Shown: positions 40,676 to 59,783 of the stretch, piece after piece | Layout: each line of letters starts with the position of its first letter | Position numbering within the stretch: position 1 is the stretch's first letter | Origin: Candidatus Calditenuis fumarioli | GTDB lineage: Archaea; Thermoproteota; Nitrososphaeria_A; Caldarchaeales; Calditenuaceae | Direction of reading: 5' to 3' | NCBI GenBank assembly: GCA_030059665.1 | Contig: JANVYR010000001.1 | Span: forward strand, 704,001 to 768,000 | DNA: 64,000 nucleotides | Position numbers and translations under genes: made by a program | The notes under the pieces: model-generated | Databases searched by the model: none | What the model saw: only the letters and a program-made list of their open reading frames with translations | Told to the model about the DNA's origin: nothing

Positions 40676-41617
40676 TCAGCCCTTGAACTCCAGTCCCGTC
40701 AGCTCGATGTACCTGTCAAGCGCCGAGAGGTGCTCCTCCGAGGTCCTCCTCTCCCACCTCACGAAGATCGCTGAGACGAGGTTCCTCATCAGCTCCGCGC
40801 CGTCAGGGGTGTTGAGGTCAAGGAAGGCCTCGATCAAGGCCTCCCTCAGCTTCGGGTCGAGGTTTTTCGAGACGACCAGCGCGTGGGACGGCAGCGGCCC
40901 CTGCTTCTCGATCACCCGCGTCGAGCTCATCGCCCTCTCGTAGAGCTCCTTCGAGACGTCACCGGCCATCACCGTCACCTCCACCCTGCCTGCCATCAGC
41001 GCCTCGTAGCACTGGGCGTATCCGCCGGCGAAGTAGACCTCCGAGAAGAAGTCCTTGGGGTCGACCGCGCCGCCGTCCTTCCTGCTCAGGAGACCGAGCT
41101 CGACCATCCTCGCCATCGGCGCCAGGTACCCGGACGAAGAGATGGGGCTCGGGAAGCAGGCGCTCTTCCCCCTCAGGTCCTCGAGTTTGGTATACGGAGA
41201 GTCTGGTCTCACTATCCAGTAGGAGTAGTAGAAGGTGCCCTCGACGTACCTGTCGTCGACGTAGACCCTCCTGACCTCCGCGAGCACCACCTGCGCTCCG
41301 GCCGTTTTGACCGCGATCGCCGCCGGCCACGAGCCCATCAGCGCCGCCTGCGCGGTTCCGAAACGGAGGGCCTCCACCACCGCAGCGTAGCTCGTCGGCA
41401 CGTAGACCTCCACCTCCACCCCGAGCCTTGAGGAGAGGTAACCCTTGAGCCGCTCGGCCCTCTCGAGGATCTGGGCTGGGTTCTGCGTCGGCTGCACTGC
41501 CAGCACCAGCTTCTCTTTCCTCGCCGGTTGCGCCGTGAAGGGGAGGACAGCGACCAGCAGGACAGCTGCGACCACCGCGACTGCCGCAACGAGCAGCCAC
41601 CGGGTGCGCGGCGACAT
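40676..41617 (-). CDS. phnD: PhnD/PtxB-family substrate-binding protein
   Basis: N-terminal anchor, SYAAVVEALRFG, YYSYWIV, DLRGK, P.SSSGYL.P, P.HA. Confidence 0.88.
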   Translation of the reverse strand: MSPRTRWLLVAAVAVVAAVLLVAVLPFTAQPARKEKLVLAVQPTQNPAQILERAERLKGYLSSRLGVEVEVYVPTSYAAVVEALRFGTAQAALMGSWPAAIAVKTAGAQVVLAEVRRVYVDDRYVEGTFYYSYWIVRPDSPYTKLEDLRGKSACFPSPISSSGYLAPMARMVELGLLSRKDGGAVDPKDFFSEVYFAGGYAQCYEALMAGRVEVTVMAGDVSKELYERAMSSTRVIEKQGPLPSHALVVSKNLDPKLREALIEAFLDLNTPDGAELMRNLVSAIFVRWERRTSEEHLSALDRYIELTGLEFKG

Positions 41618-41798: not shown

Positions 41799-41831
41799 GC
41801 CCCGGTAGCTCAGCCTGGTCAGAGCACCGGC
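41799..41831 (+). pseudogene. 5' half of a tRNA-Thr-like gene (acceptor 5' strand, D arm, 5' anticodon stem); no 3' half nearby
   Basis: GCCCCGG-TA-GCTC-AGCCTGGTCA-GAGC-A-CCGGC. It shares GCCCCGGTAGCTCAG and CACCGGC with the tRNA at 53916; no T-arm or 3' acceptor strand was found downstream. Confidence 0.8.
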
Positions 41832-42050
41832 AGAGTCTCAATGATGCGTATGGACTCGAGGGGATTCAGGATCGCCTTTTCCGTTTCGTGAGACTTTACT
41901 TAGCATAACTGCGTGAACCGTGACTCATGTAGTTCGTTCCTCTCCAGAGGCCTATATTTATGAGGCCGGTTCCGCCCTCAATTCCAGCTCATTAATGTTG
42001 CTTTTTATGACTTGAGGGGCGTTCAAGAACATATTTAAGGTAAACTCCTC

Positions 42051-42420
42051 ACCCCCTCTCCCGAGGCCACGCCTCTATCTCCTCCTCTGTTGGTAACAAT
42101 TCTGGTGGGATCTTGATGCCTGATGCACTCTCATACTTGCTGAGGTCGGCCAAAAAATGGATAACCACCTGCTACGCTGATCGGCTCCTTGTGAACCTTG
42201 CGGAAACCCCACTCCTCAAGGGCCCTTACTTCCCTCTCCCTCCCTTCCTCGGCCTTGGGATTCAAGAACGTATCAAGGATGAACTGCTTATGATATGCCA
42301 TACCCCTTATACCCCTCTACTTCATCAACTGCTCAAGGATGGGTATCGCCTGCATCTCTCCTGTCTGAACCAAAACCTCCTTCAGGAGCTTGATGTGCTC
42401 GGAATCAATCGATCGTGATG
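42051..42420 (-). pseudogene. Decayed protein-coding relics
   Basis: Minus-strand protein-like fragments SIDSEHIKLLKEVL...EQLMK*, MAYHKQFILDTFLNPK...GFRKVHKEPIS and VVIHFLADLSKYESASGIKIPPELLP..., broken by stops and a frameshift. Confidence 0.4.
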
Positions 42421-42913
42421 TTAGCTGTCGTCAGGACTCGGTTCCTGAAGGAACGGTCGAGGTGTTTGCCAGGTTGGTGGGGAAGGAAGGCAAAACCTCC
42501 TCGTGGTGGAGGACTAGGCTGGGGACGAGTACAGACTGGCGAACCGCCTAGTGTATGGAGACGTTAGTGTCTTCTCCCTTAACCCAAGTCGTCTTCAAGA
42601 CGCCTCTCCAGATCAACTTACGGCTACGCATCTACCTAGAGGTTCCAGATAGGTGGGACACGTGGCCTCGGCGCTGGTGAGGCCGCAAGGAAACTCCATT
42701 TACAGATGACTTTGTAGTCTACTCCTACATTATAAAGGAACATGGAAGCTGATAAAAGGTCATCGACCTTAAAACCTCATCAGACATTTTGAATTACTTC
42801 TTAGATTGTATGCGGGAACTAACCATATGATGAACTAGTCGTTTTGAGACTGATTTTAACTGGTTTTAACTGGGTTTGATGTCAGAGTTTGAGGTCGACT
42901 CTCACTTATCGTA

Positions 42914-43882
42914 TTATTCCGCGTCTGACATCATAGATTCTTTAAATTTATTCATACATTCTTCGCAACAGAAATAATATGTCATTCCTCCATGAAGCAG
43001 CACATAAGGGGTGTCTTTGGTCACGAACATCCCACAAACGGGATCACGATAATTTTCTACATTTGTATCGTAATGCCACTTTTTATGTGTTAGCTCATTG
43101 TATCGGGTTTCACCAGGAATATTCCTTATAAGTGATATGACCTCTGCTACTATGCTAACTGCAATTTCCTCCAAATTTGATGCATTTATATCTAGTCCAG
43201 CGGGACATTTGACGATGTTGAGGGTCTCAGGACTGTACCCCTCCCTCTCCAAATATTGTCTTAGAGCTTCCCATCTCCTTCTGCTAGCCACCAATAATAT
43301 ATTTCTAAACCCGTTCTTCAGGGCGAACCGTATCGCGTCCTCGTCATAGCGATTCATAGTTGCGACAATAATGATATCGCCAAGCCTCTTATATTCGCCC
43401 TGTATCTTATTCATTACTTGGTCATATGTTATTTTTGAAACTTTATATCCAATAAAATTGAAAAGCTGCTCTAGTTTGCTGGTCAGCTCGTTCTCACCCG
43501 CTATCGTCACCACTGCAGGCTTAATCGGTTCTAAGAGGAAGATCGCTCCGCCCGAACTAATACAGTAATTGACATGAACTGATGTATCAAGCTGAGGCTT
43601 CTCGGTGCCCGCTATAATAGACCTTGAGCGTTGATTGGGGCCAAAAAACACCAGCCTGCTACGCCCCGATTCTAAGCATTTTACGGCCTCGCTAGCTAGC
43701 CATTCGACGATGCAAGGCCCTCCCAGCCAGCCCTCAATCTCCCCGGTGGGGTGCACTATGGCCTTTGTGCCGGGCTCTACGCTTATGAAGGGCGAGGTTT
43801 CGAGCACGGTCACGAGCACGAAACTCCGTCCTTCCTTGATGAGTTCGGTCGCCCTCTGTAAGATTTGCTCCATCAAAGTCAT
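42914..43882 (-). CDS. XdhC/CoxF-family molybdoenzyme maturation factor with C-terminal YHS domain
   Basis: G...GWLGGPC, C.SGG...LLEP, VATM...DE.A, ASRRR, CPAGLDI.A...EEIA.SI.AE; C-terminal DPVCGM...YYFCCEECM..F; ATG at 43882. Confidence 0.88.
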   Translation of the reverse strand: MTLMEQILQRATELIKEGRSFVLVTVLETSPFISVEPGTKAIVHPTGEIEGWLGGPCIVEWLASEAVKCLESGRSRLVFFGPNQRSRSIIAGTEKPQLDTSVHVNYCISSGGAIFLLEPIKPAVVTIAGENELTSKLEQLFNFIGYKVSKITYDQVMNKIQGEYKRLGDIIIVATMNRYDEDAIRFALKNGFRNILLVASRRRWEALRQYLEREGYSPETLNIVKCPAGLDINASNLEEIAVSIVAEVISLIRNIPGETRYNELTHKKWHYDTNVENYRDPVCGMFVTKDTPYVLLHGGMTYYFCCEECMNKFKESMMSDAE

Positions 43883-46221
43883 AGCTCTGAAACCACGCCC
43901 TTTTCCTTCAAGATGCTGTAGACGCGCCACGGATATAGAGGCATCCCTATCTTGGTCACGCCTAAGTGGCTCAACGCGTCTACTACTGCGTTCTCAAAGG
44001 CTGCTGGTGATCCGACAGTTGGTGATTCGGCCACACCCTTTGCTCCCAACGGATGGTGGGGCGATGGTGTCACAGTGCGGTACGTCTCCCACCGAGGCGT
44101 CTCCACTGCCGTAGGTATAAGGTAGTCCATGAAGGTGTTGCCATAGATGTTTCCCTGCTCATCGTACCTTATCTCTTCTAGGAAGGCAGTCCCGAAGCCC
44201 ATGGTCAGAGCACCATGAATTTGTCCCTCCACGATCATGGGATTGATGACGTTGCCGCAGTCGTCCACAGCCACGAACCGTCTGACTTTCACCTCTCCTG
44301 TACCTCTGTCTATATCTACGACGCAGATATAAGCGCCAAATGGGAACGTCATATTTGGAGGATCATAATAGGTTACCGCTTCCAGACCCGGCTCTAGACC
44401 AGGCGGAGGATTGGTGTAGGCCGCGAAAGCCACGTCCTGTATCGTCACGGATTTCTCGGGAGCCTCCTTCACGTAGAAGCGGCCCTTCTCGAAGACTATG
44501 TCCTCCTCCCTTACCTCGAGGAGGTGGGCCGCTATCTTTTTGGCCTTAGCAATAATTTTATCAGCAGTCACCGCCGCTGCAGCCCCAGCAGTTGGTGTGC
44601 TCCTGCTAGCGTAAGTTCCTAGACCGTAGGGTGCTGTGTCGGTATCACCCTCCTCTACTGTAATGTCCTCCTCGGGTATACCTAATTTCTCTGCTAGAAT
44701 CTGCGCGAACGTCGTCTCGTGACCCTGACCCTGTGACTTGGTCCCGAACCGAGCTATGACCTTGCCAGTCGGGTGAATCCTCACCTCGCAGCTTTCGAAC
44801 ATTTTTATACCGAGAATGTCGAAGATCTTCGAGGGGCCAGCCCCTACAATCTCGACGAATGTGCTTATGCCTATTCCCATCAATTCTCCCCGCTTTCTCT
44901 TCTCCTCTTGCTCTTTTCTAAGCTGCTCATAGTCAATTTTCTCCATTGCAAGCCGCAGAGCTCTCTCGTAGTCTCCGCTGTCATATTCCCATCCGAATAC
45001 ACTGGTATATGGGAATTCCTCCTTCTTGATGAAATTCTTCAGCCTCAGCTCCGCTGGATCCATACCCAATTTGTGGGCCAAAATGTCAATCATCCGCTCG
45101 ATGACGTAGGCTGCTTCCGTTACCCTGAACGAGCACCTATACGCTATGCCACCTGGTGGTTTGTTCGTATGGACACCTGTGACCTCTACATAACCAGCCT
45201 TCCACTTGTAACAACCCGAGACTATGGTGAACAGCCCGAACGGGAACTTGGATGGTGTGGCGTCGCCAAAGAATGCTCCGTGATCGCTTAGCACGCTCAT
45301 CCTTAATGCTAGAAGGGTTCCGTCCTTTTTCGCAGCGACCTCAGCAGTGATGTAAGCGTCCCTTGCAAAGGCAGTGCTGCTTAGGTTCTCGGTTCGCGTC
45401 TCGATCCACTTCACAGGCCTCTCAGTCATGATGGAGGCAAAGGCTGCAACAACGTAACCAGGGTATACGTAGACTTTGCCGCCGAACCCTCCTCCAATGT
45501 CTGGAGCTATTATTCTAATTTTATGTTCAGGGATCTTCGTGAACAGTGAGGCAACTGTCCTGACAGCATGAGGTGCCTGGGTTGTCATCCAAAGCGTGAG
45601 TTTCCCTGTAGGCGGATCGTAATGAGCCACGCAACCACATGTTTCCATATGAGCGACGTGTATCCTATGATAGTAGAAGTTCTCTTTCACAATCACGTCT
45701 GCTTCTTGGAAATACCTATCTGTGAGGTCCTTATCTCCAGCAGACCACGTAAATATCTTGTTAGTTCCCTTGTCCGGCCTGACGAGTGGAGCATCTGGCT
45801 CCAAGGCCCTTTGCGGTGTCATAACAGGTTCTAGAGGCTCGTATTCAACCTCGACTAGTTCGGCAGCATCCTCTGCTATATAGCGGTCTTCGGCGACTAC
45901 CGCAGCAACCTCTTGATATGGATAATACACTTTGTCTAATGCTAGAACCGGTTGGCGATCATTCATTAAGGTAGGCATCATGCTTAGTCCTGCGGCCTGC
46001 AAGTCCTTTCCAGTTATTACCGCAACAACTCCGGGTACCTTTAATGCCCTCTCGACGTCAATCCTTTTGATCTTAGCATGTGCGTATGGACTCCTGATCA
46101 GCTTGACGTGGAGCATGTTGGGGAGCTTGATGTCGTCCACATATGTCCCCTTACCTCTGATGAAACGCGCGTCCTCCTTCCTCTTTAATGGGTGGCCCAT
46201 CCCATGGATTGTGGCTGTCAT
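43879..46221 (-). CDS. coxL: Aerobic Mo-Cu carbon monoxide dehydrogenase large subunit, form I
   Basis: Active-site motif AYRCSFR; RKED.RF..GKG.YVDD, GGGFGGK, QGQGHET, YG.GTY.SRS, GAKGVAE; ATG at 46221. Confidence 0.93.
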
Positions 46222-46745
46222 CTCCTCACCACCAATTCGAGGGAACGAACTCCCATCCGATTGAGCTTTTCGGCGGCGTACTGTATAGCTTCGACGATCT
46301 TGACGTAGCCTGTGCACCTGCAGAGATTCCCTGCGATCATCTGCCTTATCTCGTCTTCGGTAGGCATTGGATTTTGATGTAGTAGCCAAGCAGATTGCAT
46401 CAACAGTCCAGGCGTACAGTACCCACACTGAAGACCGTGTTTCTCCCAAAAGCCTTCTTGAACCGGATGTAGCCTACCATCCCTTTCAAGCCCTTCGACT
46501 GTGTATATCTCTGATCCATCGAGCTGCACCGCGAAGAGGGTACAACTCTTGACGGTTACGAAATCCTCGGACCACGGGAATCTCACTAGGATCGTGCATG
46601 CGCCACAGTTAGATGTGTCGCAGCCTATGTGCGTGCCTGTCAAGTTCAGCAGCTCCCTGATCATGTGTACCGCCAATAGCCGCGACTCGACGTCTAGTTC
46701 CTTCTTTACTCCGTTTACAACCACACTTATCTTATGTCTTCCCAT
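46218..46745 (-). CDS. coxS: CO dehydrogenase small [2Fe-2S] subunit
   Basis: [28 protein letters not shown]. Confidence 0.95.
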
Positions 46746-46752
46746 CTTTACA

Positions 46753-47622
46753 TCACCTAACCAATCTCTCGTAGACCGTTTTGATGCCTCTGAGGAGGAG
46801 CACTCTCATTACGTCTCTCTTGTACCAGTCCGGGCCCCTTAAGTCGGAGACGGGATTGACCTTCATTTTGTCAAACGCATTCTTAGCCGAGGTCAGCAAG
46901 TTCTCTAAGCCCCTTTTATCGATTATCGATTCCTCTATTTCCTCCGCAGGCAGAGGTGTAGGTCCCGCGTTTGTGAAAGCCACTCCTGCACGCGTGACCC
47001 TATTATCATCATCAACGGTCAGTTGGACCGCCACCGCCGCTATCGCGTAATCGCCCGTGCGCCTCTCAAACTTCAGGTATGTCCCTCCCGAGTATCCGTC
47101 CCAATGTGGGACGTTCACCTCCACGAGCACCTCGTCTGGTCGCAATTCTGTTGTAAAGGGTCCCTTGTAGAAGTCCTTTGCCGGAATCTCCCGTGTGCCC
47201 CTCTTGCTCTTCACAACATATTTTGATTTCAGACTGATGAAAACTGCCGGTAAATCATTGCCTGGATCGCCGTGGGCTGCGTTACCTCCGACGGTGCCCA
47301 TGTTTCTCACTTGAGGGTCTGCGACCTGTCTAGAGGCCGCGCGCAGAATGTCATATTGGGATGGGAACTTAGTTCGTTCCAATTGCGCAATTCTTACCAA
47401 TGCACCGATCTTTAATGAACCGTCTTCCATGTTCATGTAATTTAGGCCTTTGACCCGATTGATGTCAACGACCAGTGCAGGCCGGGCAATCCTCAGCTTC
47501 ATTAAGGGTATCAAGCTCTGTCCCCCGGCCAGTATCTTGGCCTCTTCGCCCCTCTCATCTAGTAACTTTAGGACGTCATCTAAAGAGTTTGCAGGAATGT
47601 ATTCGAATTGTGGTGGGTACAT
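46753..47622 (-). CDS. coxM: CO dehydrogenase medium FAD subunit
   Basis: [38 protein letters not shown]...YK. Confidence 0.93.
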
Positions 47623-47699
47623 TTCGACACCTTACCCCAATACCTTCTATTAAACCTATCCTTACACATGCCGCGCGATTTGATTACAGTTGGCTGATC

Positions 47700-48010
47700 A
47701 CCTATGAGGGCTTGAAACTCGTCCTCGACGTGCACATGGACCGCAAGTTCCTCGACCATCCCATTGGACTCCAGCTCCCACTAGTCCTCGGCCGTGGGGA
47801 ACCCGACGAGGGCGAAGACTAGCTCCGTCCTGCCGTCCTCCGGAATGATGTGGACGCCAGCGCACGTGGTGACGAGCCCTGATTGAGGAGAGCGTGGGGT
47901 TGGACCACGCTGGTAGGCCGTGGTCGCCGCCGATGACCAGCAGGTCGCACTCGCGGTCCACGAGTTCCGCGATGGTCGTCCGGTTCTTCGCCACGCGTTA
48001 CCATCATCTA
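47700..48010 (-). pseudogene. Fragmented ORF relic upstream of the cox operon
   Basis: Protein-like pieces in shifting frames (RTTIAELVDRECDLLVIGGDHG; VHIIPEDGRTELVFALVGFP*); family not identified. Confidence 0.3.
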
Positions 48011-48339
48011 CCTCCGTGGAACGATCGTTAATCAGGGGAATCATTAGCGTGATCTTCGTGTCCGCCGAGGCGGCGAAGCTCCTAGGCCTAATCGAGTTTT
48101 CGGCGCGAAGTCGCAGGCAATGGAGGCAACCTAGACTCTCCAGCGGTGCGGATCTAGCCGAGCATGATCCGCGTCGCCCTTGAACTAACTAGCCATGAGT
48201 TCTACGAGCCGGGTTGCCACCTCCTCGGAAAGTCCGAATGACAGCCAGAGGTCACAGAAGAGAAAAGTGCTGTGCCAGAAACCAAGAGAAGGCGTTCCAG
48301 ACTGGCTTCCGTTATTTCCAAGATGTCTGAGGTTGTCGT

Positions 48340-48699
48340 TCACCTCCTGAGAGTCTTACCGTGAACGATCTTGGCCATCAAAGTAATGACTCCCGCGACG
48401 AGGGCCATCACGAAATCTGTTGTGAACAGGACCTCAGAAGGCGCTCTGATGAGTACCTCATTGTTGCCGACCCTAAGGACGTAATTTAGCGCGAACGCTC
48501 CGGCTGTCGGGACGCTCAGCCCCATAGGCCTGACGACCTGAGTCCCTGCAATTATTCCCACGAGGAAGACCAGCGGTACCGTGAGCCCCCTCAGGCTCAT
48601 CAACGACCCGGACCACTTCTTCCCGGCAAAAATCGACCCGATTAGGGTCGTCGAGGCCGCGAGCAGCAGGAAAAGGAAGAGAAGGGCCCGCGGCTTCAT
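48340..48699 (-). CDS. Small membrane protein (about 3 TM, 119 aa)
   Basis: MKPRALLFLFLLLAASTTLIG..., LTVPLVFLVGIIAG, FVMALVAGVITLMA; ATG at 48699. Confidence 0.65.
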   Translation of the reverse strand: MKPRALLFLFLLLAASTTLIGSIFAGKKWSGSLMSLRGLTVPLVFLVGIIAGTQVVRPMGLSVPTAGAFALNYVLRVGNNEVLIRAPSEVLFTTDFVMALVAGVITLMAKIVHGKTLRR

Positions 48700-48711
48700 G
48701 GAAGCCCACCT

Positions 48712-49240
48712 CACGTGACCTGCCGGCCGACCTCCGCGGCGCGCTTCGCCTCGAACGGCACGAAGGTCAGAACGGCCCTCGCCCACAAGGGGTCCCCGAT
48801 CTCGGCGAACCTCTGTCCCCTCCCTCTCCGCCTTCAGCACGGCCTTCCGGACCGTTTTCACGGAGAGGTCCACGTTTCAACCGCCCACTCCTGCGCCCCT
48901 CTGTCCATCCCAGGACCTCGAGCATCCAGCTCCTCAGGTCCTCCTCGCTCTCTATCTGCTCGGTGGAGAGCTGGCCCAGTATATGCCCGCCGAGCGTCAG
49001 CCCCAGGGTCAGACCCTTCCCCCACGAGGGCCGTAGCGTTGACCTGCAAAGGCAGATCCGACTATCCCTCCATCACTGTCCTGTCCGCGGCCTCGGAAAG
49101 GGAGACCCCTGTCTTGACGTATCCCAAATCAGATCAAAGCAACTCTGATGCTATCGACTGGACGGTCCTGCGACCGTCTGTCTTGATCCAGTAACAAAGA
49201 CCATGTTGCAGACGTCTGCATTCACTTTCCTCTCATCGCC
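48712..49240 (-). pseudogene. Decayed gene with HTH-like segment
   Basis: Frames can be joined as CYWIKTDGRRTVQSIASELL*SDLG..., GLTLGGHILGQLSTEQIESEEDLRSWMLEVLGW, DLSVKTVRKAVLKAEREG and FAEIGDPLWARAVLTFVPF...*; this requires at least two stops and several frameshifts. Confidence 0.4.
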
Positions 49241-49284
49241 CTGAGATGGGGAGTGAGGCTATCACATTTAATCCTCGTGGCACT

Positions 49285-51201
49285 TCATGGTTGAAGCCCG
49301 CATCGTTGCAGACGACCCTCATCTACACGCTCGGTCCCCGCGCGCCAGACCACCTTTACCGCCCTTCCTGTCCTAGGCGTCGTAACGACGGCCTCTTCCC
49401 ATCCTAGCGTAGCCAATGCATCCCTCTGCGCGTCGTTTAGCATCATCCTCTCCGAGACGACCTCCAGATCGTCGGCACCCGTCAGCCTCTTGCAGATCAC
49501 CGTCCCAGGAAGGGAGACGGCGTCGTCGGATATCCTCGACGGCCTCTGGTCTACTATCCAGACCGACTCTCCGAACTTCCTCACCTCCCTGAGCATCTGC
49601 TCTACGATAGTAGTCCTCCCGGTCTCGGTCCTGGGGAGCAGGTTGTGCGCCTCCTCGCAGACGACGACGTGGATCTTGCTTCCCCTGCCCGACCTCCTCC
49701 TCTGCTCGAAGATCGCCTTGAGAACCAGCCAAGAGACGACGTTCCTCTCCCGCTCAGAGCTGAGGGACGAAAGGTCTATCACCGCGTCCTCCGTAAGCAG
49801 CTCGCCGATGCCGATTGCACCTTCCCCTCCTTCTATGAACCTCGATGCACTTCCGTCCGCAAGCTCGGAGATCCTAGAATAAAGCGAGAAGAGCGCGTCC
49901 CTTGCCCTCCTCGAGTCCAGGAATCCCCTGATCAGTTCTGAACCGCTTCCCTCGAGGTACCGGACGAAGAGCGATGGCCTGAAGTCTTTGAACTCGGCCC
50001 TGAACCTCCTGTATGCTGTCCTGAAGACGGCCGACTGGAGCGGGCCGAACTCCTCGGGCCAGGCCATGGAGAATATGTCCGAAAGGAACACCGACTCCTC
50101 TTCAGGATCTGACTCAGCGGTAAGGAGCTTTAGACCCTCCACATCGCCTCCGGGCCCCACGACCACGTCGGCATTCTCCCTGTACTCTCCGTGCCTGTCC
50201 AGAACGAGGTACCTGATCCCGAGCGACCTGAGCCTCGTCAACAGGGCCTTGACCAGGGAGGTCTTGCCCGATCCGGGGGAGCCGAAGACCGCCAGGGAGT
50301 GAGGGAGGTGCTCGATGGGCACTGAGACCGGAACCCTTCCACCTGGTCCGTGAGAGAACCCTATCAGGAGACCTCTGCCTCCGGCCTCGCCCCTCATCGG
50401 ACGGTGGAAGACCTCTCTTCTGACCACGGCATAGCTCAGGGATGGCGAGAGAACAGGACCCGTCCTGAGGAGCACAGCTAGCTCTTTGGTGGTCAGGTAA
50501 TGCTCCCTGGGCCTTCTGGACCTCTCCAGCTCCGCCATCAGATAGGATCGGGCCAGAGGCTTCAGAACCCTCACGGCGGGGCCGTCGTGAGCTAGGACCT
50601 CGACAGATACGGCCCAGCCCTCCTCGAGCAGCTCGCTGGCCCTCCAGAGCTCCCTCCTCATCCTCTCCATCCTAGGGAGAAGCTCGGGCCTGACCTCCTC
50701 CCTTCCCTCGGACCTCCCTCCTTCCCTCTCGGTCACGATGGACCTGATGGAAGCCTCTGCTTTGCTGAGGTCCTCGGAGACCTCCCTGAGATGAGCCGAG
50801 ATCCTGAACCTGTCCAGGAATCCCCTGGCCGGCCTGGCGGAGATCACCAGGTCGTACTCGAGTCCGGCGGAGGACGTGGTCCTGAGGAAACCCTCTACGT
50901 CAGCCGAATGCTGCCACCCGTCGAGGAGGCGCTTAATTCCGAGTGACGTGCGGTCAGCGTCACCGAGCTGGAACGTCCCTCCAGGGCTGCATGCTCCGGT
51001 CATGGACCGCAGCAGCCTCACCACATCCCCCGGTTCCATGCCCTCTATACCGATCAGCAGGGAGAAGTTCGCCTTCCTGACCGAGTAGACCGTGACGAGC
51101 TTCCTGTTCATGGCCCAGCACGCCCTAAGTATCCTAGACCTCTCCTCGGTCGAGAGCTCGGGCAAAGAGACCGAGACGAGCTCAGGGACCGAGATATGCA
51201 A
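49285..51201 (-). CDS. HerA/VirB4/FtsK-clade (DUF87-like) ATPase with about 290-aa N-terminal extension
   Basis: Walker A FGSPGSGKT, VLDRHGEY, Walker B VVVCEEAH, LREVRKFG, DQRPS. Confidence 0.88.
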   Translation of the reverse strand: MHISVPELVSVSLPELSTEERSRILRACWAMNRKLVTVYSVRKANFSLLIGIEGMEPGDVVRLLRSMTGACSPGGTFQLGDADRTSLGIKRLLDGWQHSADVEGFLRTTSSAGLEYDLVISARPARGFLDRFRISAHLREVSEDLSKAEASIRSIVTEREGGRSEGREEVRPELLPRMERMRRELWRASELLEEGWAVSVEVLAHDGPAVRVLKPLARSYLMAELERSRRPREHYLTTKELAVLLRTGPVLSPSLSYAVVRREVFHRPMRGEAGGRGLLIGFSHGPGGRVPVSVPIEHLPHSLAVFGSPGSGKTSLVKALLTRLRSLGIRYLVLDRHGEYRENADVVVGPGGDVEGLKLLTAESDPEEESVFLSDIFSMAWPEEFGPLQSAVFRTAYRRFRAEFKDFRPSLFVRYLEGSGSELIRGFLDSRRARDALFSLYSRISELADGSASRFIEGGEGAIGIGELLTEDAVIDLSSLSSERERNVVSWLVLKAIFEQRRRSGRGSKIHVVVCEEAHNLLPRTETGRTTIVEQMLREVRKFGESVWIVDQRPSRISDDAVSLPGTVICKRLTGADDLEVVSERMMLNDAQRDALATLGWEEAVVTTPRTGRAVKVVWRAGTERVDEGRLQRCGLQP

Positions 51202-51817
51202 CCAATCTCGCCCTCCTGCCGTTCAGGCTGACCAGCTCCTCGGCGACCAGGCCCTCCTCCTCGAGCTCCCTCACCCACTTCCTGACCGTCGGCAGCGAGA
51301 GGCCTGCAACCCTAGCCAGCTCGGACTTCGTCACGCTTCCCCTCTCCCTCAGGACCCGGAGTATCCTGTCCCTGGGGCCCTCGATGGCGTCAGTCCTCGA
51401 ATGGACGTAGTTCAGGCCTCCGTCGGTCCAGAGATCCTTTCCCCCTGATGGCGTTACCGCCTCTTCCCGGCCCATCAGTCCTGAGATGGCGCCTGCGGCC
51501 ATACGCGCTAAAGCGAGGGGGCCGATGCCGGCGAACCTCCGGAGGAGCGCCAGGGCGGTAGCCGCTATAGCAGCAGCGCCCACCATGGGGTTCTCCACGG
51601 AGAGGACCGCGGCCGAGAGGGTCGCCGTGACCAGGAGACCGGTCTTAAGGACCCTCAGACTCCCGGTCAGGAGAGCTGAGAGCAGGGTGAGATAGAGTCC
51701 CATCGAGAGGACCAGGGATGAGGTCCCCATCCACTCGGTGATGCCGTAGACCGCGATGGCCGGGATCGCCGGCGCGAGCAGCTTGACCGTTGCCGAGCCG
51801 GTGCCCATCCAGGTCAA
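51182..51817 (-). CDS. Membrane-anchored winged-helix protein (N-terminal multi-TM, C-terminal wHTH)
   Basis: About 110 hydrophobic residues, then RDRILRVLRERGSVTKSELARVAGLSLPTVRKWVRELEEEGLV. Confidence 0.8.
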   Translation of the reverse strand: MTWMGTGSATVKLLAPAIPAIAVYGITEWMGTSSLVLSMGLYLTLLSALLTGSLRVLKTGLLVTATLSAAVLSVENPMVGAAAIAATALALLRRFAGIGPLALARMAAGAISGLMGREEAVTPSGGKDLWTDGGLNYVHSRTDAIEGPRDRILRVLRERGSVTKSELARVAGLSLPTVRKWVRELEEEGLVAEELVSLNGRRARLVAYLGP

Positions 51818-51979
51818 CGGAGGACGTACCCGCTTATCCGAATGCGACCCGAAACGGAATTTCTGGGCTTCTCCAGGCGGGGGAGGGGCTGGACCCCGGA
51901 CCGGGTTGATGGGAAAGGAAGGATGATAACTCGGTCTTAGCTGGGTCAGACCGGAGACGGGAGCGTCGGTGAGCGGAAC

Positions 51980-52693
51980 TTGTGTGACGATCCATACGAG
52001 GAGTACGGGTTGGACGCTCTGGGCGGGCTCCTCGTCCTGCTGATACTGCTCCTTGCGATATTGGTCCTCATCGATGCCATAGTGAAGGAGATCACAAAGC
52101 TCCTCATGAGCGTGAAGGCGATGCTGGACGCTCTGGTCGCGACGCTCATCTCGGCCTTTATGGTGGTGGTTATCGGGGCGCTTAACGCATTCGTCTATTT
52201 ACTCGTCGCCGTTGCAACCCTGATACTCGGCGTTCAGCTGTACAAGCGCTCCGACAAAATAATCGGGGCGCTCTCGTCCTTAGCACGCTGGATAGCGGGC
52301 CATATACATTACCGGATGATCGAGCCCCTCCTCGCGATCAGGGAGCTCAGGAGTACGCTGGATAGGATGTCCGGTGACACTTCCTGTCTGATGGTTCTCA
52401 TGGAGCTCTTAAATGGTCCGGCTGGAAGCATCAGCGAGCTCGGTGAAAGGGTCGGTAAAAGGGCCCTCAGCACCGTTCACACCCACATACGGCACCTGGT
52501 GGATTGTGGTCTGGTGGAGAGGGTCGAAGAGAGGATAACGGGCAGGAGGGGCTCTTCGGCCGAGGTCAGGGTGGGGCTGGCGAGGAGGTTCGACAGATGG
52601 ACCGCGAGGCTCTACCTCAGATGGAGGATAGGAAGGCTGCTGAAAGCCGGTGAAAGGGTTGCTGAAAGGCAAGGTTTGAGTAGCTTTCACTGA
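51980..52693 (+). CDS. Membrane-anchored ArsR-like winged-helix protein (N-terminal TM, C-terminal wHTH)
   Basis: LGGLLVLLILLLAILVLI and ATLISAFMVVVIGALNAFVYLLVAVATLILGV, then SISELGERVGKRALSTVHTHIRHLVDCGLVERVE. Confidence 0.78.
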   Translation: MCDDPYEEYGLDALGGLLVLLILLLAILVLIDAIVKEITKLLMSVKAMLDALVATLISAFMVVVIGALNAFVYLLVAVATLILGVQLYKRSDKIIGALSSLARWIAGHIHYRMIEPLLAIRELRSTLDRMSGDTSCLMVLMELLNGPAGSISELGERVGKRALSTVHTHIRHLVDCGLVERVEERITGRRGSSAEVRVGLARRFDRWTARLYLRWRIGRLLKAGERVAERQGLSSFH

Positions 52694-52911
52694 CAGCTGA
52701 TTAGCGAGGAAGGCTGTACGGCCGCCAACGGTCGGATGGGATATAGTGGTACCTTGGTGAGAGAATGAGTGATGGGAAGTTTCAGGACCCCGGGGTTGAC
52801 CCGGAAGCGGTCGCGGCCCCGGGCCCGGGGGATAAGGCCGCGCCCCCTGATGGCGTTTTTGGGCGAAGCGCCCCCATCGGGGAATCTCTCGGGAGGGGAG
52901 GGGTTGAGAGA

Positions 52912-53694
52912 TTGTCCAGAAAGTTCTACGCCGACGTCCACTGGAGGAAGGACCACGTGGTCGTAGCAGACGGGATCGTTAAGAGGTTCAGGAAGCTCGG
53001 CGACATACCCGCACAGGCCGGAGACGAGCTGTACGTGGATGCGATGCTACCGAGCAGATTTCAGGAGTTCGAGGAGTTGCTGAACAGAGGTGTCCGGGTA
53101 TTCTACCTGAGGAGGACCGACGTCTTGGAGAAGTACAGGGAGAAGAAGAGCGATGAGGACGACGCCAGGGCGCTGATGAGAATACCACAACACCTCTTCA
53201 GGGAGCTCATAGGAAAGGAGCTGGAGGTCAGAAGGCTTCTGCACAAATACACGACGACGAAATCGCACCTGGAACTTGTAAAGCAACTGTCACGCGAGGC
53301 GGATGATGAGGAGACCAGGGCACACTACAGACATCTCATCAATCACCTGAGGAGGCGGAAATACAAACTGGCTAAAGAGATAGACGCGTTGGCTAGAAAC
53401 TTCCTTCCGGTCCAACAGATAGCATGGAAACTTGGAATCATTTCAAACAATTGCCTCTTCGGCAGGGTAGCTCTGGTTCAGCTGCTGTTGTACGTGGACT
53501 TCAGCTTAGGGCTGAGAAAGATATTGACCTATACCGGTAACTACTATCCTAACGACGGAAGGTACAGCAGAACTCTAAAGGATGCAACCGAATCGCTGAC
53601 AATCAGCGTCAAGAGAAGGCAGAAGATCAAGGGAAAAGAGGTGAGAGAGGTCCTGAAAACCATAAAGAACGTGCTGAAGGCGATGAAGAGGTGA
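52912..53694 (+). mobile_element. Compact IS110-family-like (DEDD RuvC-type) recombinase/transposase
   Basis: FYADVH (first D), ELYVDAM (D at the usual E position), KSDEDDARAL (KTDxxDA motif), helical linker, short C-terminal RKILTYTG...GRYSRTLK; probable TTG start at 52912. Confidence 0.6.
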
Positions 53695-53698
53695 GAAC

Positions 53699-53811
53699 GG
53701 GGGAAAGAGCCGGATGGGGACCTGGGCAATAGAGCACCGAATGCAGACCTACCGAAAGGGGGGATGAAGCAATTACCAAGCCAATGCTCTAGGTTCTCAT
53801 TCCGGCTCCCC
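53699..53811 (+). ncRNA. Candidate structured RNA downstream of the IS110-like gene
   Basis: Nested stems GAGCCGGA (53707-14)/TCCGGCTC (53801-08), ACCT/AGGT and TAGAGCA (53730-36)/TGCTCTA (53785-91), with an internal CC-GAAA-GG hairpin. Confidence 0.4.
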
Positions 53812-53884
53812 TAGACGGCATACGGCTGGCGATCTAACCCCTCCCCTCTCTTTTTCAATGCCCTCTTCTCACGTTAATTACAGG

Positions 53885-53892
53885 TTTAAATG
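53885..53892 (+). promoter_or_regulatory. TATA box of tRNA-Thr
   Basis: GTTTAAAT about 25-30 nt upstream of the mature 5' end. Confidence 0.6.
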
Positions 53893-53915
53893 TAGAGTTC
53901 ACGGAATTCCGCTTA

Positions 53916-54013
53916 GCCCCGGTAGCTCAGGTGGCGGAGAATTGGGAGAACCCCCAATCTGAATCACCGGCTTGGTAAGCCGGGGGTCGCGGGTTCAAGT
54001 CCCGCCCGGGGCT
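53916..54013 (+). tRNA. tRNA-Thr(GGT) with a 25-nt intron in the D stem (about position 24/25; 53940-53964)
   Basis: Acceptor GCCCCGG/CCGGGGC, anticodon arm CCGGC-TTGGTAA-GCCGG, T arm GCGGG-TTCAAGT-CCCGC. The D stem GCTC/GAGC forms only after removing AATTGGGAGAACCCCCAATCTGAAT. Confidence 0.93.
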
Positions 54014-54390
54014 CACCTGGCTTAATTGGGACGTTCTCAGACGGAATTGGGCGAGCCGTCCGGGAGGACTCGACAGAAACCCAGGCGTTAGGAGATGCCC
54101 AAACAGCACACGGCCTAACGTTGGAATACGCTCAAACGGTCCCGATGTGGACTGGGCCTTCGTGGAGATGGTGATGCTCCAGAACTATAGCTGCAGGTGG
54201 GCAAGGGAGTGCCTGCGCCTCATGAGGCGCTACGCTCATTCCCTGTGCTCAGGCGATGCCTCATCCCTCTTGACGCTCGGTCCCCACGAATGGCTCGAGG
54301 CGATGAAGGCGCGCGGCATGCTCTCGAGGGTCTAGGGCTCCGAGTGAGTGGAGAGCGATCAGAGAGGCTTATGGGCTCAAGTGGAGCCTA
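53979..54390 (+). pseudogene. Inactivated archaeal tyrosine integrase fragment, int(C)-like
   Basis: Frame is open from the tRNA 3' half (GRGFKSRPG) to DWAF...RYAHSLCSGDASSLLTL...AMKA..LSRV*G, then after a frameshift EWRAIREAYGLKWS. This matches my recollection of tRNA-adjacent TACK integrases. Confidence 0.65.
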
Positions 54391-54521
54391 GGCGAATGCG
54401 CATCACCTCCGATGCTCTCTGGAGGAGCATATTCGAGCCTTCTGTCCGATGCGCACAGGGTCTGAAAGCCCTTGAGGAGGGCAGGGAAGCGCGCTCCCCT
54501 CAAACATAGGCCTCGGTTGAT

Positions 54522-55259
54522 GTGTTGATGGACCAGGGTCTTATTACGACCTTTGCTGGTATCAGTAGGTGTCTCGTTGTGGCGAGGGGTCTCCGGCTCA
54601 GACTCGACCGGAAGGACGTTGAGATTTTGAGGGCGCTCCAAGAAGACGCAAGGATTCCCCTCAAAGAGCTGGCCCTCAAAGTCGGTCTCAGCATACCATC
54701 TATAAGGAACAGGATCGATAAGTTGTTGGAACTAGGAGTCATAAAGAAGTTCACCGTTGTTATAGATTCCTCCAGGATCGCCGAGAGGGTCAGGGCGCTG
54801 ATATTGTGTAAGGTCCCGACAGATCGTCTCAAGGGATTAGGGGAGAAGCTCAGTAAGCTTGACTCCGTGAGGGAGCTACACGTGCTTGCCGGCTCGTATA
54901 ACATGGTGTTGAAGGCGGAATTCAGAGACTTCGAGGAGGTGATGAGGTTCGTCCATGAGAGGTTACCAGGAACTCTAGACATGGAGGTTCTGATAATTTC
55001 AGGCACCTATAAGGAGGAGTATGGAGGAAACGTCTACCCTGACGAGGCCATCAGGATGAGGTGTGACTTCTGCCACTCACTTATCGTCGAGAAACCGGTC
55101 GTGAGGGAGATAGGAGGAGGCAGGTACTATTTCTCCAGTGAGGAGTGCGCCGAGGCCTTCGAGCGGAGGTTGAGGGGCGAGGAGAAGGAGGTACCCTGGT
55201 GGGAGAAGCAGTCCCAAGAACCTTCAAGAACCCGTAGGAGGCGGAAGGGAGGCGGATAG
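54522..55259 (+). CDS. Lrp/AsnC regulator with C-terminal TRASH metal-binding domain (true start probably about 54580-54600)
   Basis: LDRKDVEILRALQEDAR...ELA..VGLS...IRNRI..L...GVIKKF; RAM-like middle; CDFC...YYFSSEEC. Confidence 0.88.
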   Translation: MLMDQGLITTFAGISRCLVVARGLRLRLDRKDVEILRALQEDARIPLKELALKVGLSIPSIRNRIDKLLELGVIKKFTVVIDSSRIAERVRALILCKVPTDRLKGLGEKLSKLDSVRELHVLAGSYNMVLKAEFRDFEEVMRFVHERLPGTLDMEVLIISGTYKEEYGGNVYPDEAIRMRCDFCHSLIVEKPVVREIGGGRYYFSSEECAEAFERRLRGEEKEVPWWEKQSQEPSRTRRRRKGGG

Positions 55260-55973
55260 AAGCGCCTGAGTAATCGGCCCATCGCTCCTTAACCTCACGA
55301 TTCCCTCCGAGTCTATGACGAACGTGGTGTCGACGTATGCGATCCTCCATTCTCTGGCCAACTCGCCGCTCTCGTCCAGGACCAGATGCCATCGCCTGTC
55401 TCCCCACTGAGAAACGAATGAGGTCAGAACGTCGGCGTCTTCCGGCGGCGGTACTCCTGGACGTCCCTCAAGTCCAGCCATCTTCAACACCTGCCTCGTC
55501 CAGAGGTCCACCACAATTACGACCACTCTATCTCCCTTCTCCTTGACGACCTCCTTAATCGCCGGACCGACCGAAGCGCAGCTGGGGCACCAAGCGGCCA
55601 TGAACCAAACCACGACGAACTTCCCCCTGAGCTCCGAGAGCCTCATCGTCCTGCCATCGATGGTCCTGAAGGTGGAGTCCGGCGCCCTCATGCCTTCGTA
55701 TGGGCCTACCTTCGAGTCCGCTGCGGTCCGTTGGGTCTCGGTCGTCACGCTCCTTTCTGCTAACCTAGTGGGAAGTCCGCTTTGGCGTCCAGCGTCCCAA
55801 CTCCCAAAGAGGGCCAAGAACGCAATAACCCCTATGAGGAGAAGGCAACACGCTAAGAAGGTTGCTACCTGCCAGCTTCGCCTTCCGCTACCTTCCTTGA
55901 AAGCTGTTGACCTCTTAGCTCTCTTTACGTTGGATGAACTGGAGGTTCGCCCTCCACCACAGCACGTAGCCAC
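55224..55973 (-). CDS. Membrane-anchored TlpA/redoxin-family thioredoxin-fold protein
   Basis: N-terminal TCCGG, one TM, LSELRGK.VVVWF.A.WCPSC, PTTF-like DTTFVIDSEG.VR. Confidence 0.82.
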   Translation of the reverse strand: MATCCGGGRTSSSSNVKRAKRSTAFKEGSGRRSWQVATFLACCLLLIGVIAFLALFGSWDAGRQSGLPTRLAERSVTTETQRTAADSKVGPYEGMRAPDSTFRTIDGRTMRLSELRGKFVVVWFMAAWCPSCASVGPAIKEVVKEKGDRVVVIVVDLWTRQVLKMAGLEGRPGVPPPEDADVLTSFVSQWGDRRWHLVLDESGELAREWRIAYVDTTFVIDSEGIVRLRSDGPITQALLSASLPPPTGS

Positions 55974-55985
55974 GGCTCCCCACCT

Positions 55986-56684
55986 TCAGCAGCAGGCGGG
56001 TGTAGAAGACAACTCGAACCTCAGCTTCCTGTTAGCTTTCCCCATCGAACTCCTGGCCCATCTCCTGTAAAGCGACCAGTGATTGAGCCATAACAGCGCC
56101 ACAGAGAGGACGACCAAGAGCTTACCGTATGTGCTAATCGAGCCCGCGATTAAGGGCAATGCGCCAGCCGACAGTAAGACCGCGAACACCAATCCACCGC
56201 CGCAACAGGAGAAGACGCTGAAGGCTGCCGGGAGCGCCGAGACGAAGACCGAGACGGACCTAGTGAGCGCCGTCCTCCTCGGACAACTCGTGACACCTCT
56301 GTGATAGATGTAGTAGAGAGATGATGCGTTGAGGCCCACGAGGGACGAGAGCACCAAAGTTGACAGGAAGGCCTCGAGGTTCACAGAGAGCGTCCAATAT
56401 CTATCAATGTAAGCTATGAGCCAGGGGACTTGTCCGATGGGACCTCTTGTTATAAGAGTGATCTGTGGCACTGATATATACGATGGAATAGGTTGCGGGT
56501 TCCGAAATACCACTCCTATCGCGAACGCGTAGACCAACGCGAATATGACAGCTGACATTACCCCTGTGTTCCTAGCTCTCTTGTCAGACATCAATGCTCT
56601 GACGAATCCCTTGTACGTCATCCTCATAACGTCCCCTTCTATATCCCGACTAAAGCCTTGTCGTTTAATCTTTCGAAGCTTCAC
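55986..56684 (-). CDS. Cys-pair-rich membrane protein (start possibly ATG 56627)
   Basis: Four hydrophobic segments, SCP, FSCCGGG, C-terminal ACC. Confidence 0.72.
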   Translation of the reverse strand: MKLRKIKRQGFSRDIEGDVMRMTYKGFVRALMSDKRARNTGVMSAVIFALVYAFAIGVVFRNPQPIPSYISVPQITLITRGPIGQVPWLIAYIDRYWTLSVNLEAFLSTLVLSSLVGLNASSLYYIYHRGVTSCPRRTALTRSVSVFVSALPAAFSVFSCCGGGLVFAVLLSAGALPLIAGSISTYGKLLVVLSVALLWLNHWSLYRRWARSSMGKANRKLRFELSSTPACC

Positions 56685-56809
56685 GCCCTTTGGGATCTCG
56701 TCGAAGCGATTGTTTTCGGGACATCAGCCTCAAAACCTGAAGGTAGAGCTGTAGAGCGCTTAAACGATTTACAGGAACGCACTAAATGTTATGAGGCTTT
56801 AACCGTGTA

Positions 56810-58234: not shown

Positions 58235-58719
58235 ATTGGAACACAATTGATAAAATTTATCTTACAAGACTATATTTATACCTCAATTCTAAGTATCCGT
58301 TCTCTTTTCTTATCGTGTGTATTTTTGTAATTTTCCCACCATTACTCGCATTATCTGCAGCAAAATTTATGCAAATAACAATGCTTGTGGTTCTATAGTC
58401 CATGTTCTATAGTGAACGCTTAACCCTTCTTAGGGTCAGTATCCGGTTAAAAGACAGATATGTAAGTTAATTGGCGCGATTCGGCAGTAGAGGTCTCATC
58501 CTAAATTATTCAGCTTCTACTCCACAGTAGACGACAATTTCGGCGAATTCATGATTACAAAGGTTTTTATGCAGCGAGTTGCCTTGCCTCTTTCAGATTC
58601 CATGAGTGAAGGATACTGAAAATCTCTAGAAAGGATGAAAATCATAATGGGTGGTAATTTATAACAAATGGATTTGGATTTTGGCGAGATAAAAAATATG
58701 ACACTAGAGGTTTGGTATC

Positions 58720-59118
58720 CTATGCCTTCCGAATATGTGGAGATGAATTGTGGTGATAACTACCGCGTGAAATCTCTTGAACATCTAATATGCGATATTC
58801 GTGAACCACTCCTGAGGTTGTAACGATCTTACTGTTGAAGATGTTTAGAGAAGTTAGGTCGTTTGGACTTACCTCGCCCTTCTTGAGTATGACTAAGAAA
58901 TGCCCTATATTCTTGTTGACCTGCGAACCTTTCACATATAATATACCTCTCATAGATTTAATACGCGATTCGATGAACTCAACACATTTGCAACATGTCA
59001 CCCCTTCTACAACTAACTTCACGTGTATAACTTCATTCCATTCTTCATCGTATAGCGGTACCGAGTTCTCAACGTCCAATCCTAGATGCTGAGGCCCGCA
59101 GCTAAAACTCTCTGCCAT
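58720..59118 (-). CDS. HMA-like heavy-metal-associated domain protein (start uncertain)
   Basis: KLVVEGVTCCKCVEFIESRIKSMRGI resembles the HMA GMTCxxC motif; lies in strongly A/T-rich DNA. Confidence 0.55.
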   Translation of the reverse strand: MAESFSCGPQHLGLDVENSVPLYDEEWNEVIHVKLVVEGVTCCKCVEFIESRIKSMRGILYVKGSQVNKNIGHFLVILKKGEVSPNDLTSLNIFNSKIVTTSGVVHEYRILDVQEISRGSYHHNSSPHIRKA

Positions 59119-59249
59119 TTCCTCGCGAAATCGCCCCTAAACTTTTATAAAAAGATTTATTATTTATACTGCATTTGGGGGCTTAATTCCCCGACCTTCG
59201 CTCATCTCGTTCTCGTCAAGGGATTTACATATTCTCCTTAGAATTTCCC

Positions 59250-59531: not shown

Positions 59532-59783
59532 TATACTGCTATCCCTTACGATGCCTGGGTGAGCGCGACCTTTTCCACCTCATGAGCCCCAATTTCCGGA
59601 AATTTTTGACGGAGCCTTCGCGATTTCTCGCGACTTGCTTCTCGATGAAAATTACTACTTAAATCTTACCAGAAAGTTTATGTAAAAGTTTTTCTTCAAT
59701 CGGAGAAGCTTTCCCTAAAAATCGCTTCTGCTACGCCAGGATGGTCGTCTCCAGCATGCAAATGACCACGACCTCCACTTATA

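Follow-up and report, generated by a model that had tools for sequence, protein, structure and literature searches.

Positions 41832–53971 of the stretch analysed here, a 64,000-nt window (G000:C1:704001–768000, written genome:contig:positions) of the Candidatus Calditenuis fumarioli genome G000 (1.57 Mb in 3 contigs, ~62–64% G+C, 91% complete), were inserted into the single tRNA-Thr(GGU) gene by a member of a mobile-element family belonging to this archaeal order, probably through a guided cut like that of TasR, an RNA-guided nuclease of the TIGR-Tas systems. The comparison with relatives shows that the host gene was cut within the 5′ strand of the anticodon stem, leaving tRNA positions 1–31 beside the host gene phnD. 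At its right end, the inserted DNA brings a promoter, a replacement for exon 1 and a 25-nt hairpin, the last now forming a D-stem intron. Because the promoter, exon 1 and intron come from the inserted DNA, the working tRNA-Thr is a chimera. Two spacers in a predicted RNA of the element, A (sense, matching the left of the insertion point) and B (antisense, matching the right), together spell the uninterrupted gene. The features that carry this interpretation are as follows.

40676–41617 (−): phnD, host gene for a phosphonate ATP-binding cassette (ABC) substrate-binding protein (NCBIfam TIGR01098/TIGR03431); left synteny anchor
41799–41831 (+): old tRNA-Thr(GGU) 5′ half, the stranded host part; 33 nt, tRNA positions 1–31, intronless
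41821–41829: protospacer A (AGAGCACCG) within the old half, which also contains GGC, the first three bases of the spacer-B side
52642–53971: core of the element, ~1.3 kb
52642–52764 (+): conserved leader, where similarity to the tRNA-Lys element begins
52765–53694 (+): gene for a RuvC/coiled-coil/Nop protein of 309 amino acids, here called p309
53700–53813 (+): putative gene for a rod-shaped guide RNA, beginning at the p309 stop codon
53731–53739: spacer A (AGAGCACCG), sense to tRNA positions ~21–29, across the junction of D stem and anticodon stem
53774–53782: spacer B (TACCAAGCC), antisense to tRNA positions 29–37; reverse complement of GGCTTGGTA
53883–53892 (+): element-borne box GGTTTAAATG, resembling a TATA box/B recognition element, ~26–31 nt before the rebuilt tRNA; seen in the sequence
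53916–54013 (+): complete tRNA-Thr(GGU), ~12 kb downstream of the old half
53916–53939 (+): exon 1, element-borne, tRNA positions 1–24, with the element-type D loop
53940–53964 (+): D-arm intron, 25 nt, at the right end of the insertion, with the hairpin ATTGGG/CCCAAT
53965–54013 (+): tRNA positions 25–76, including protospacer B (53969–53977, GGCTTGGTA), which covers the anticodon stem and loop

The original prediction had described a 33-nt 5′ half ending at the anticodon stem and, 12 kb further on in the same orientation, a complete tRNA-Thr(GGT); it had also listed a common 15-mer, the heptamer CACCGGC, a difference in the D loop and an intron in the second copy only. On re-reading the sequence, we found all of these. 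The old half runs from the acceptor 5′ strand through the D arm (its D loop being AGCCTGGTCA) into the anticodon stem, of which it keeps the 5′ strand as far as C31. The 15-mer lies at 41799–41813 and 53916–53930, the only two exact occurrences in the window, and CACCGGC at 41825–41831 and 53965–53971. The D loops of the two copies are unlike, and the 25-nt insert is confined to the complete gene. Rfam model RF00005 scored 53916–54013 as a tRNA (48 bits); ARAGORN miscalled it owing to the non-canonical insert, which interrupts the D stem on its 3′ strand, and returned a canonical tRNA-Thr(GGT) cloverleaf once 53940–53964 had been deleted. Joining 41831 to 53972 in silico likewise yielded a 75-nt tRNA-Thr(GGU). 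The intron can fold as a relaxed bulge-helix-bulge with bulges AGA and AUC, the inner helix ATTGGG/CCCAAT and a central helix CGG/CUG containing one G-A mismatch, compared with two 3-nt bulges and a 4-bp helix in the classical motif. An in silico cut after the second bulge base restored the correct D stem and the canonical cloverleaf. G+C content steps from 0.64 to 0.47–0.55 precisely at 41800. The left junction at 41831/41832 is genuine and not a mis-assembly, because contigs of three independent studies (X3, X4 and X11) bridge it from phnD to 41881; the whole island was matched at ≥99% identity in contigs of four runs.

Comparison with relatives identified the stranded copy. In G002, a member of the same genus whose phnD (contig C49) has 81% DNA identity to that of G000, an uninterrupted tRNA-Thr(GGU) gene with no intron in its D arm (L053:2628–2717) comes directly after phnD and the matching intergenic DNA. 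Four further members of the genus encode a tRNA-Thr(GGU) with a D loop of the old-half type, again without the D-arm intron, and all five relatives carry an intron after the anticodon loop of this gene. The empty site in G002 and the D loops of the relatives identify the left half as the piece of the host gene that was left stranded. The D loop of exon 1 is unlike both the old half and every relative within the genus, and the 3′-terminal 37 nt of the rebuilt tRNA are identical to tRNA-Thr of G002; the part from 53972 onward is presumed to be of host origin. The empty site sought by the original prediction exists. Its proposal that a crossover near CACCGGC had stranded the host half stands as far as the stranding is concerned; the site was apparently chosen by a dual-guide RNA encoded in the element and not through att-type homology. 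The chimeric tRNA that it envisaged is supported for the promoter, exon 1 and intron, the 3′ part being of presumed host origin. In two runs from 2017 hot-spring samples (X8 and X11), a more abundant organism has an intronless tRNA-Thr(GGU)-like gene (41799–41819 joined to 53965 onward) whose D-stem/anticodon-stem sequence would match spacer B exactly and spacer A with one mismatch, just 21 nt of flank being visible; this organism is a potential target population. Contig joints of 41819–41828 to 53965–53986, considered as empty alleles, were rejected: they belong to tRNAs of other organisms, with a shorter side of 21–27 nt and differing letters in between. A further contig joint, of 52645 to 53680, probably reflects paralogous elements.

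The arrangement recurs elsewhere in the genome. G000 contains three related elements, at tRNA-Thr, tRNA-Asn and tRNA-Lys, each splitting its tRNA and each encoding a RuvC-Nop protein of ~260 amino acids and a rod-shaped RNA with two 9-nt spacers. Paralogues of p309 lie at C1:627176–627946 (87%) and C2:492171–493070 (66%), in the same architecture at tRNA-Asn and tRNA-Lys, respectively, and a distant one at C1:324937–325800 (34%). At the Asn and Lys loci, an intronless 5′ half is followed by the gene, ~115 nt of conserved non-coding sequence, a GGTTTAAATG-type box and a complete tRNA; the box stands at the same distance as at tRNA-Thr, and both rebuilt tRNAs carry, at the corresponding place in the D stem, a hairpin insert related to that of tRNA-Thr. 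These two elements measure ~1.2–1.6 kb, with the RuvC-Nop gene as their sole gene. The Thr copy aligns to the Lys element (C2:493173–492048) at 74% by blastn over 52642–53813; since this similarity begins at 52642, we assigned ~1.3 kb to the core of the element and the remainder to cargo. The original prediction, which had treated the whole island as the element, is upheld as to insertion and corrected as to extent: a mobile core of ~1.3 kb accompanied by 10.8 kb of cargo. Genome-wide, the TTGGG..CCCAA hairpin-intron motif occurs in these three tRNAs and in four unrelated chance matches. Five further ARAGORN "giant-intron" tRNAs (C1 848399, C1 624548, C2 180281, C2 261843 and C3 115106) were discarded as spurious because they lie inside coding DNA, leaving the Asn and Lys calls alone as real.

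The same architecture was found in other genomes at tRNA-Thr (G024), tRNA-Leu(CAG) and tRNA-Leu(CAA) (G038), tRNA-Arg(CCT) and tRNA-Arg(GCG) (G017), tRNA-Met (G050) and tRNA-Lys (G027). With 159 representatives in a set of 1.8 billion proteins, the family is small; it is also patchy, for it occurs in 26 of the 61 genomes of the order, with up to 43 matches per genome and often at contig ends, and none of the six other genomes of the genus has a member. The suggestion that such an event is a route by which tRNA introns spread gains support from at least 10 loci in 7 genomes, together with a published locus (Sugahara et al. 2012, PMC3293823). The tRNA-Phe(GAA) gene of G024, a Caldiarchaeum-like genome, carries 21 inserted nt at the corresponding point of the D stem (GAG|C; L090:1501–1590; G024:C1:196258 onward), with no RuvC-Nop gene and no old half within 1.5 kb, and is a candidate solo intron remaining after loss of an element. 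Separately, ~80 nt past the rebuilt tRNA-Leu(CAG) of G038, sequence like the conserved G024-type left end (L049:3800–3860, contig G038:C9) suggests that a second element adjoins the first.

The non-coding segment after p309 has the features expected of a guide. Its predicted fold comprises a long outer stem and an internal loop that holds both spacers, one on either side of an inner hairpin. Across 13 homologues, the consensus fold contains 30 pairs, 10 of them with compensatory changes, and leaves the spacers unpaired; variability among the columns is greatest in the two 9-nt loop segments, which are set in invariant flanks. Rfam returned no family for this RNA at gathering or E-value thresholds. 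Each of the 17 loci parsed has one guide unit, with no tandem array, and a second, donor-type loop matching the element ends was not seen by eye in a search that was not exhaustive. At 10 of 13 loci, the downstream tRNA of the same locus contains an exact reverse complement of spacer B, compared with 3 of 156 cross-locus pairs, and spacer A matches the old half with 0–1 mismatch at all five loci where a half is present. This relation between spacers and tRNA extends to the Asn and Lys elements of G000 and to loci in G024, G038, G017, G050 and G027. Four of five same-genus genomes that lack the element contain the 17-nt composite Thr target with no mismatch, and G000 itself has no site with fewer than 2 mismatches. 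In the literature searched, RNA guidance, a relationship to TasR or IS110 and the cut geometry were not found described for these elements.

A second subfamily in G024 (L035, L036, L038 and L039) consists of copies that are 87–96% identical over 1.6 kb and carry unrelated 9-nt spacers. Each spacer pair matches the left and right flanks of its own copy, which are AT-rich and TATA-like or promoter-like, in either orientation; one copy lies inside the promoter of a tRNA-Thr(CGU) gene. This pattern suggests cassette-like replacement of the spacers, or homogenisation of everything but the spacers. Because the copies match their flanks in either orientation, they fit a symmetric cutter better than a directional recombinase.

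Judged by its sequence and modelled fold, p309 is related to TasR and to the IS110 superfamily. Pfam and NCBIfam gave no match for the protein, whose conserved core begins at about residue 53, the first ~50 residues being of low confidence. Its AF2 model (pLDDT, predicted local distance difference test, 81) gave VIA Z scores of 14.0 against TasR (9mty_A; 241 residues aligned, root-mean-square deviation (rmsd) 4.6), 13.4 against the Nop domain of TasH (rmsd 2.5), 12.7 against ISCro4 and 12.4 against IS621 (both over 248 residues), and ~7.5 against archaeal Nop5. Searched against PDB sequences, a 36-member family profile matched TasR (E 5e-8), TasH (3.5e-5) and IS621 (5e-4). The motif KSDxxDA aligns to the RuvC motifs KNDENDS of TasR and KTDTVDA of IS621, and D57, D69, D92 and D133 are nearly invariant (kept in 33–36 of the 36 members). 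Across the 36, the loop aligned to the IS110 catalytic serine contains no conserved Ser, Thr or Tyr; it is variable, and deleted in several members. PF01548 (DEDD_Tnp_IS110) matched six of the 36 below threshold (best E 0.0098), and PF02371 (Transposase_20) was not among the families listed. An early guess of an IS110 bridge recombinase was down-weighted on the family profile against PDB and on the lack of a conserved nucleophile in this loop. We infer that the protein acts as a nuclease rather than as a recombinase.

The junctions were compared with the cut rule of TasR (Faure et al. 2025, PMC12045711), by which the break in either strand falls 3′ of the base that pairs with the fifth spacer position. 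For this locus, the expected nicks are at tRNA 24|25 in the bottom strand and at 33|34 in the top strand. The intron cuts protospacer A in two between bases 4 and 5, and an intron junction at spacer-A 4|5 (±1) was seen in all interpretable loci. Old halves stop 1–7 nt, mostly 2, before the predicted top-strand nick, and 2 nt before it in this locus. The overlap between halves ranges from 3 to 8 nt across loci, which rules out a target duplication of fixed length; CACCGGC most plausibly marks the stretch over which two staggered cuts overlap. In G024, the old tRNA-Thr fragment (C1:467119) ends at position 27. Since the intron splits protospacer A and the old half has no protospacer B, the occupied locus would no longer be a target.

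In the mechanism that we propose, a protein-RNA complex would recognise intact tRNA-Thr(GGU) genes and introduce TasR-like staggered nicks, at 24|25 on the bottom strand and 33|34 on the top strand. The element would then be copied or joined into the break, and the repeat of positions 25–31 (CACCGGC) would correspond to the overlap of the two nicks. The occupied locus would be immune to its own enzyme, with the tRNA still functional after splicing. Whatever stands between the half-sites would travel along, giving room for a 10.8-kb cargo. In this scheme, cleavage, the nick positions and guide expression are predictions.

The same element and the same RNA guidance could instead serve a recombinase of the IS110/IS1111 kind, which we regard as unlikely. 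A single dual-spacer, seekRNA-like RNA would then pair with the flanks for circular excision and with the intact tRNA gene for integration, and strands would be exchanged at a short core (GGC) with no free double-strand break, so that the whole segment between the flanks would be mobilised together with its cargo. In fold and domain order, p309 equals IS621 and ISCro4 (Z 12.4–12.7; profile E 5e-4 for IS621), the family is multi-copy and often found at contig ends as insertion sequences are, and at four loci a 3-nt stretch directly after protospacer A is common to the old half and the new gene. In IS1111-type systems, the seekRNA guide also lies downstream of the gene, as here. Against this stand the missing Ser/Thr/Tyr at the nucleophile position, with the loop itself absent in several members; the single guide loop in place of separate target and donor loops; Pfam IS110 matches that stay below threshold and cover 6 of 36 members; the occurrence of the other subfamily in either orientation relative to its spacer pair; an overlap between halves that varies from 3 to 8 nt; and TasR as the best sequence match.

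Integration of a plasmid by a tyrosine integrase of the pNOB8 type, through an attP site carrying the intron-bearing 5′ part of a tRNA and with the spacer matches as by-products, is the published reading of a homologous locus (Sugahara et al. 2012, PMC3293823), and the plasmid-like CedD/HerA-type ATPase and winged helix-turn-helix proteins of the cargo would suit it, as would the standing of tRNA genes as the usual integration sites in archaea. We consider it very improbable for this locus. PF00589 found no match in the island or elsewhere in the 91% complete G000 genome, compared with matches in 14 of 14 control genomes; the Asn and Lys copies of 1.2–1.6 kb carry the RuvC-Nop gene only; the repeated sequence is interrupted and falls in the 5′ part of the tRNA; and in the other subfamily, spacers also match flanks at targets that are not tRNA genes. 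The covariation of spacers with flanks refutes the by-product reading. Hardly any weight remains for the 5′ half as a trans-spliced split-tRNA half, which the original prediction had offered as its alternative, or as an assembly artefact. The half does retain intact acceptor and D-arm sequence together with the host upstream region. A complete, foldable tRNA-Thr(GGU) is nevertheless present, no orphan tRNA-Thr 3′ half or second old half occurs in the 1.57-Mb genome or the window, the half has no evident leader complementary to a partner, and contigs of the three independent studies span the junction, which also disposes of the mis-assembly feared at the outset. As a separate observation, PF00589 finds no Xer-like gene in G000 either.

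Several findings weigh against a guided-nuclease insertion as the complete account. The arrival of new copies at new sites is not accounted for by a nuclease on its own, which also leaves unexplained both the match of exon 1 to each new acceptor stem and the exchange of spacers between near-identical copies. The structural scores for TasR and for the IS110 enzymes are less than 2 Z units apart. The left ends of the three G000 copies are not alike, and the overlap between halves is 7 nt here, 3 nt in G024 and 6–8 nt elsewhere. The tRNA 3′ part lacks the post-anticodon intron that all five genus relatives have, and the 31 kb that follow the tRNA are missing from G002 and uncovered by contigs of other samples; given the lack of this intron and the non-syntenic downstream flank, the 3′ part could have been imported too. 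Other family members span 1.2–2 kb, compared with the 12-kb block here, for which reason the block may be the sum of separate events.

The tRNA-splitting architecture itself is already published. Sugahara et al. (2012, PMC3293823) described, in tRNA-Thr(GGU) of Caldiarchaeum subterraneum, a 1.87-kb "a+b" insertion with a 5′ fragment, a 24/25 intron and an empty allele, filled and empty alleles coexisting in the population; they suggested that tRNA introns and scattered fragments derive from a mobile element, and proposed an integrase of the pNOB8 type. Both elements share the tRNA, the upstream 5′ fragment in the same orientation, the extra 24/25 intron, the empty allele and their multi-copy nature. 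p309, encoded immediately upstream of the rebuilt tRNA and on its strand, is homologous to their open reading frame b (E 4.6e-49 and 43% identity to the C. subterraneum protein; 44% identity to the ORF b homologue P0004). The elements differ in size (a 12.2-kb block with 10.8 kb of cargo here, 1.87 kb there), in the overlap of the halves (7 nt here, 3 nt there) and at the left end, where the 545-bp region "a" was not found in our locus, which also lacks the left-end sequence of G024 and has other short repeats at 41835–42410. The guide RNA and the relationship to TasR and IS110 were not recognised in that study.

TasR of the TIGR-Tas systems (Faure et al. 2025, PMC12045711; PDB 9mty) shares with p309 the RuvC, coiled-coil and Nop architecture and is its best match in structure and sequence. 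In both, two spacers of ~9 nt lie between conserved short motifs of a stem-loop and address opposite strands of one site, and our insertion junctions fit the TasR cut rule. Unlike TIGR arrays, the guide described here is a single unit, the element is mobile and flanked by its split target, and that target is a host tRNA gene repaired by the element. Published TIGR systems have an unknown biological role and no reported mobility.

IS110/IS1111 elements (Durrant et al. 2024, PMC11208160) resemble the family in having an RNA-programmed insertion site, a RuvC-Nop-type protein encoded beside its RNA, guide segments that match the top and bottom strands on two sides of the insertion point, and multiple copies. 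The present elements differ from them by the absence of a conserved catalytic serine, by the single loop and by scores below the Pfam thresholds. They also carry a gene-repair module (promoter, exon 1 and intron) and variable filler or cargo inside the half-sites. Siddiquee and colleagues reportedly described, in 2024, IS110/IS1111 insertion sequences with a seekRNA.

Homing endonuclease genes in archaeal rRNA and tRNA introns, and the retention of transposons assisted by TnpB or IscB, rely on a nuclease that recognises the uninterrupted allele. The insertion destroys the recognition site and RNA splicing keeps the host gene working, a logic common to the element described here. In contrast to these systems, recognition here would be through an RNA guide and the nuclease gene lies outside the intron; the intron forms the last 25–30 nt of the element, and the displaced gene half stays behind.

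The locus, its paralogues and its homologues tie one family of D-arm introns to one mobile element. The origin of non-canonical introns, fragments and split tRNAs in archaea has been an open question for some twenty years, and a 2026 preprint still judged the route of intron arrival unknown. We tentatively propose, as an idea that could well hold, that an RNA-guided nuclease whose staggered cut serves as the insertion site, an intron that blocks re-cutting and a displaced half together form a route to introns, fragments and split tRNAs, and the first such role for a TIGR-Tas-like system. If so, loss of an element by recombination between exon-1 copies would leave a solo non-canonical intron, as in the tRNA-Phe of G024, and rearrangement would scatter tRNA halves. 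Non-canonical tRNA introns would then be gained, and archaeal tRNA fragments and split tRNAs would originate, by a concrete mechanism that can be reprogrammed. It would also give the TIGR-Tas-like systems a first natural role and a first mobile form, their function being selfish homing with self-immunity conferred by the intron. Because the site choice can be read from two 9-nt spacers and the junctions fit the cut rule of an RNA-guided nuclease of solved structure, the question is directly testable with one protein, one RNA of ~115 nt and a 40-bp duplex. Compact dual-guide enzymes of thermophiles that are free of a protospacer-adjacent motif would also be of practical interest.

The DNA between the left half-site and the core is a 10.8-kb cargo of carbon monoxide (CO) dehydrogenase genes and a plasmid-like module. 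It indicates that such an element can bring a metabolic cargo of this size into a tRNA gene without a tyrosine integrase. The block is likewise present in contigs of four runs, and no close counterpart was found among 40 relatives. Its features are as follows.

41832–52641: cargo, 10.8 kb, G+C 0.47–0.63 compared with 0.64 in the host
41835–42410: short dispersed repeats
42914–43930 (−): XdhC-like factor with a YHS/TRASH domain (Pfam/NCBIfam)
43879–46449 (−): CoxL (TIGR02416, 1219 bits)
46218–46745 (−): CoxS (Pfam/NCBIfam)
46753–47622 (−): CoxM (Pfam/NCBIfam)
48340–48873 (−): membrane protein
49285–51201 (−): CedD/HerA-like ATPase (Pfam/NCBIfam)
51182–51817 (−) and 51980–52693 (+): two membrane winged helix-turn-helix proteins

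At the left end of the island, a 68-nt segment (41835–41902) has terminal inverted repeats GTCTC...GAGAC and an AUGAUG box, with an 88% identical copy at G000:C1:220103–220170. It somewhat resembles a C/D-box small RNA, and Rfam gave no match for it at gathering or E-value thresholds. Repeats of 60–185 nt within 42047–42410 recur at 74–90% identity in at least 8 other places on all three contigs, and contigs of other samples break here; these repeats may be miniature elements or remnants of element ends.

On the other side, a second, strain-variable block seems to begin exactly at the 3′ end of the tRNA. It runs from 54014 to 64000 and on to G000:C1:789114 (~31 kb, G+C 0.43–0.60), and contigs of four other hot-spring runs stop or diverge at its start. 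The dipeptidase gene that directly follows the tRNA in G002 maps here to C1:789164, 31 kb past the tRNA. No repeat of the tRNA 3′ end was found in the block, and no 3′ remnant before the dipeptidase gene. The block encodes an Lrp/TRASH regulator, a mercuric-reductase-like flavoprotein and genes for siroheme and sulfite reduction.

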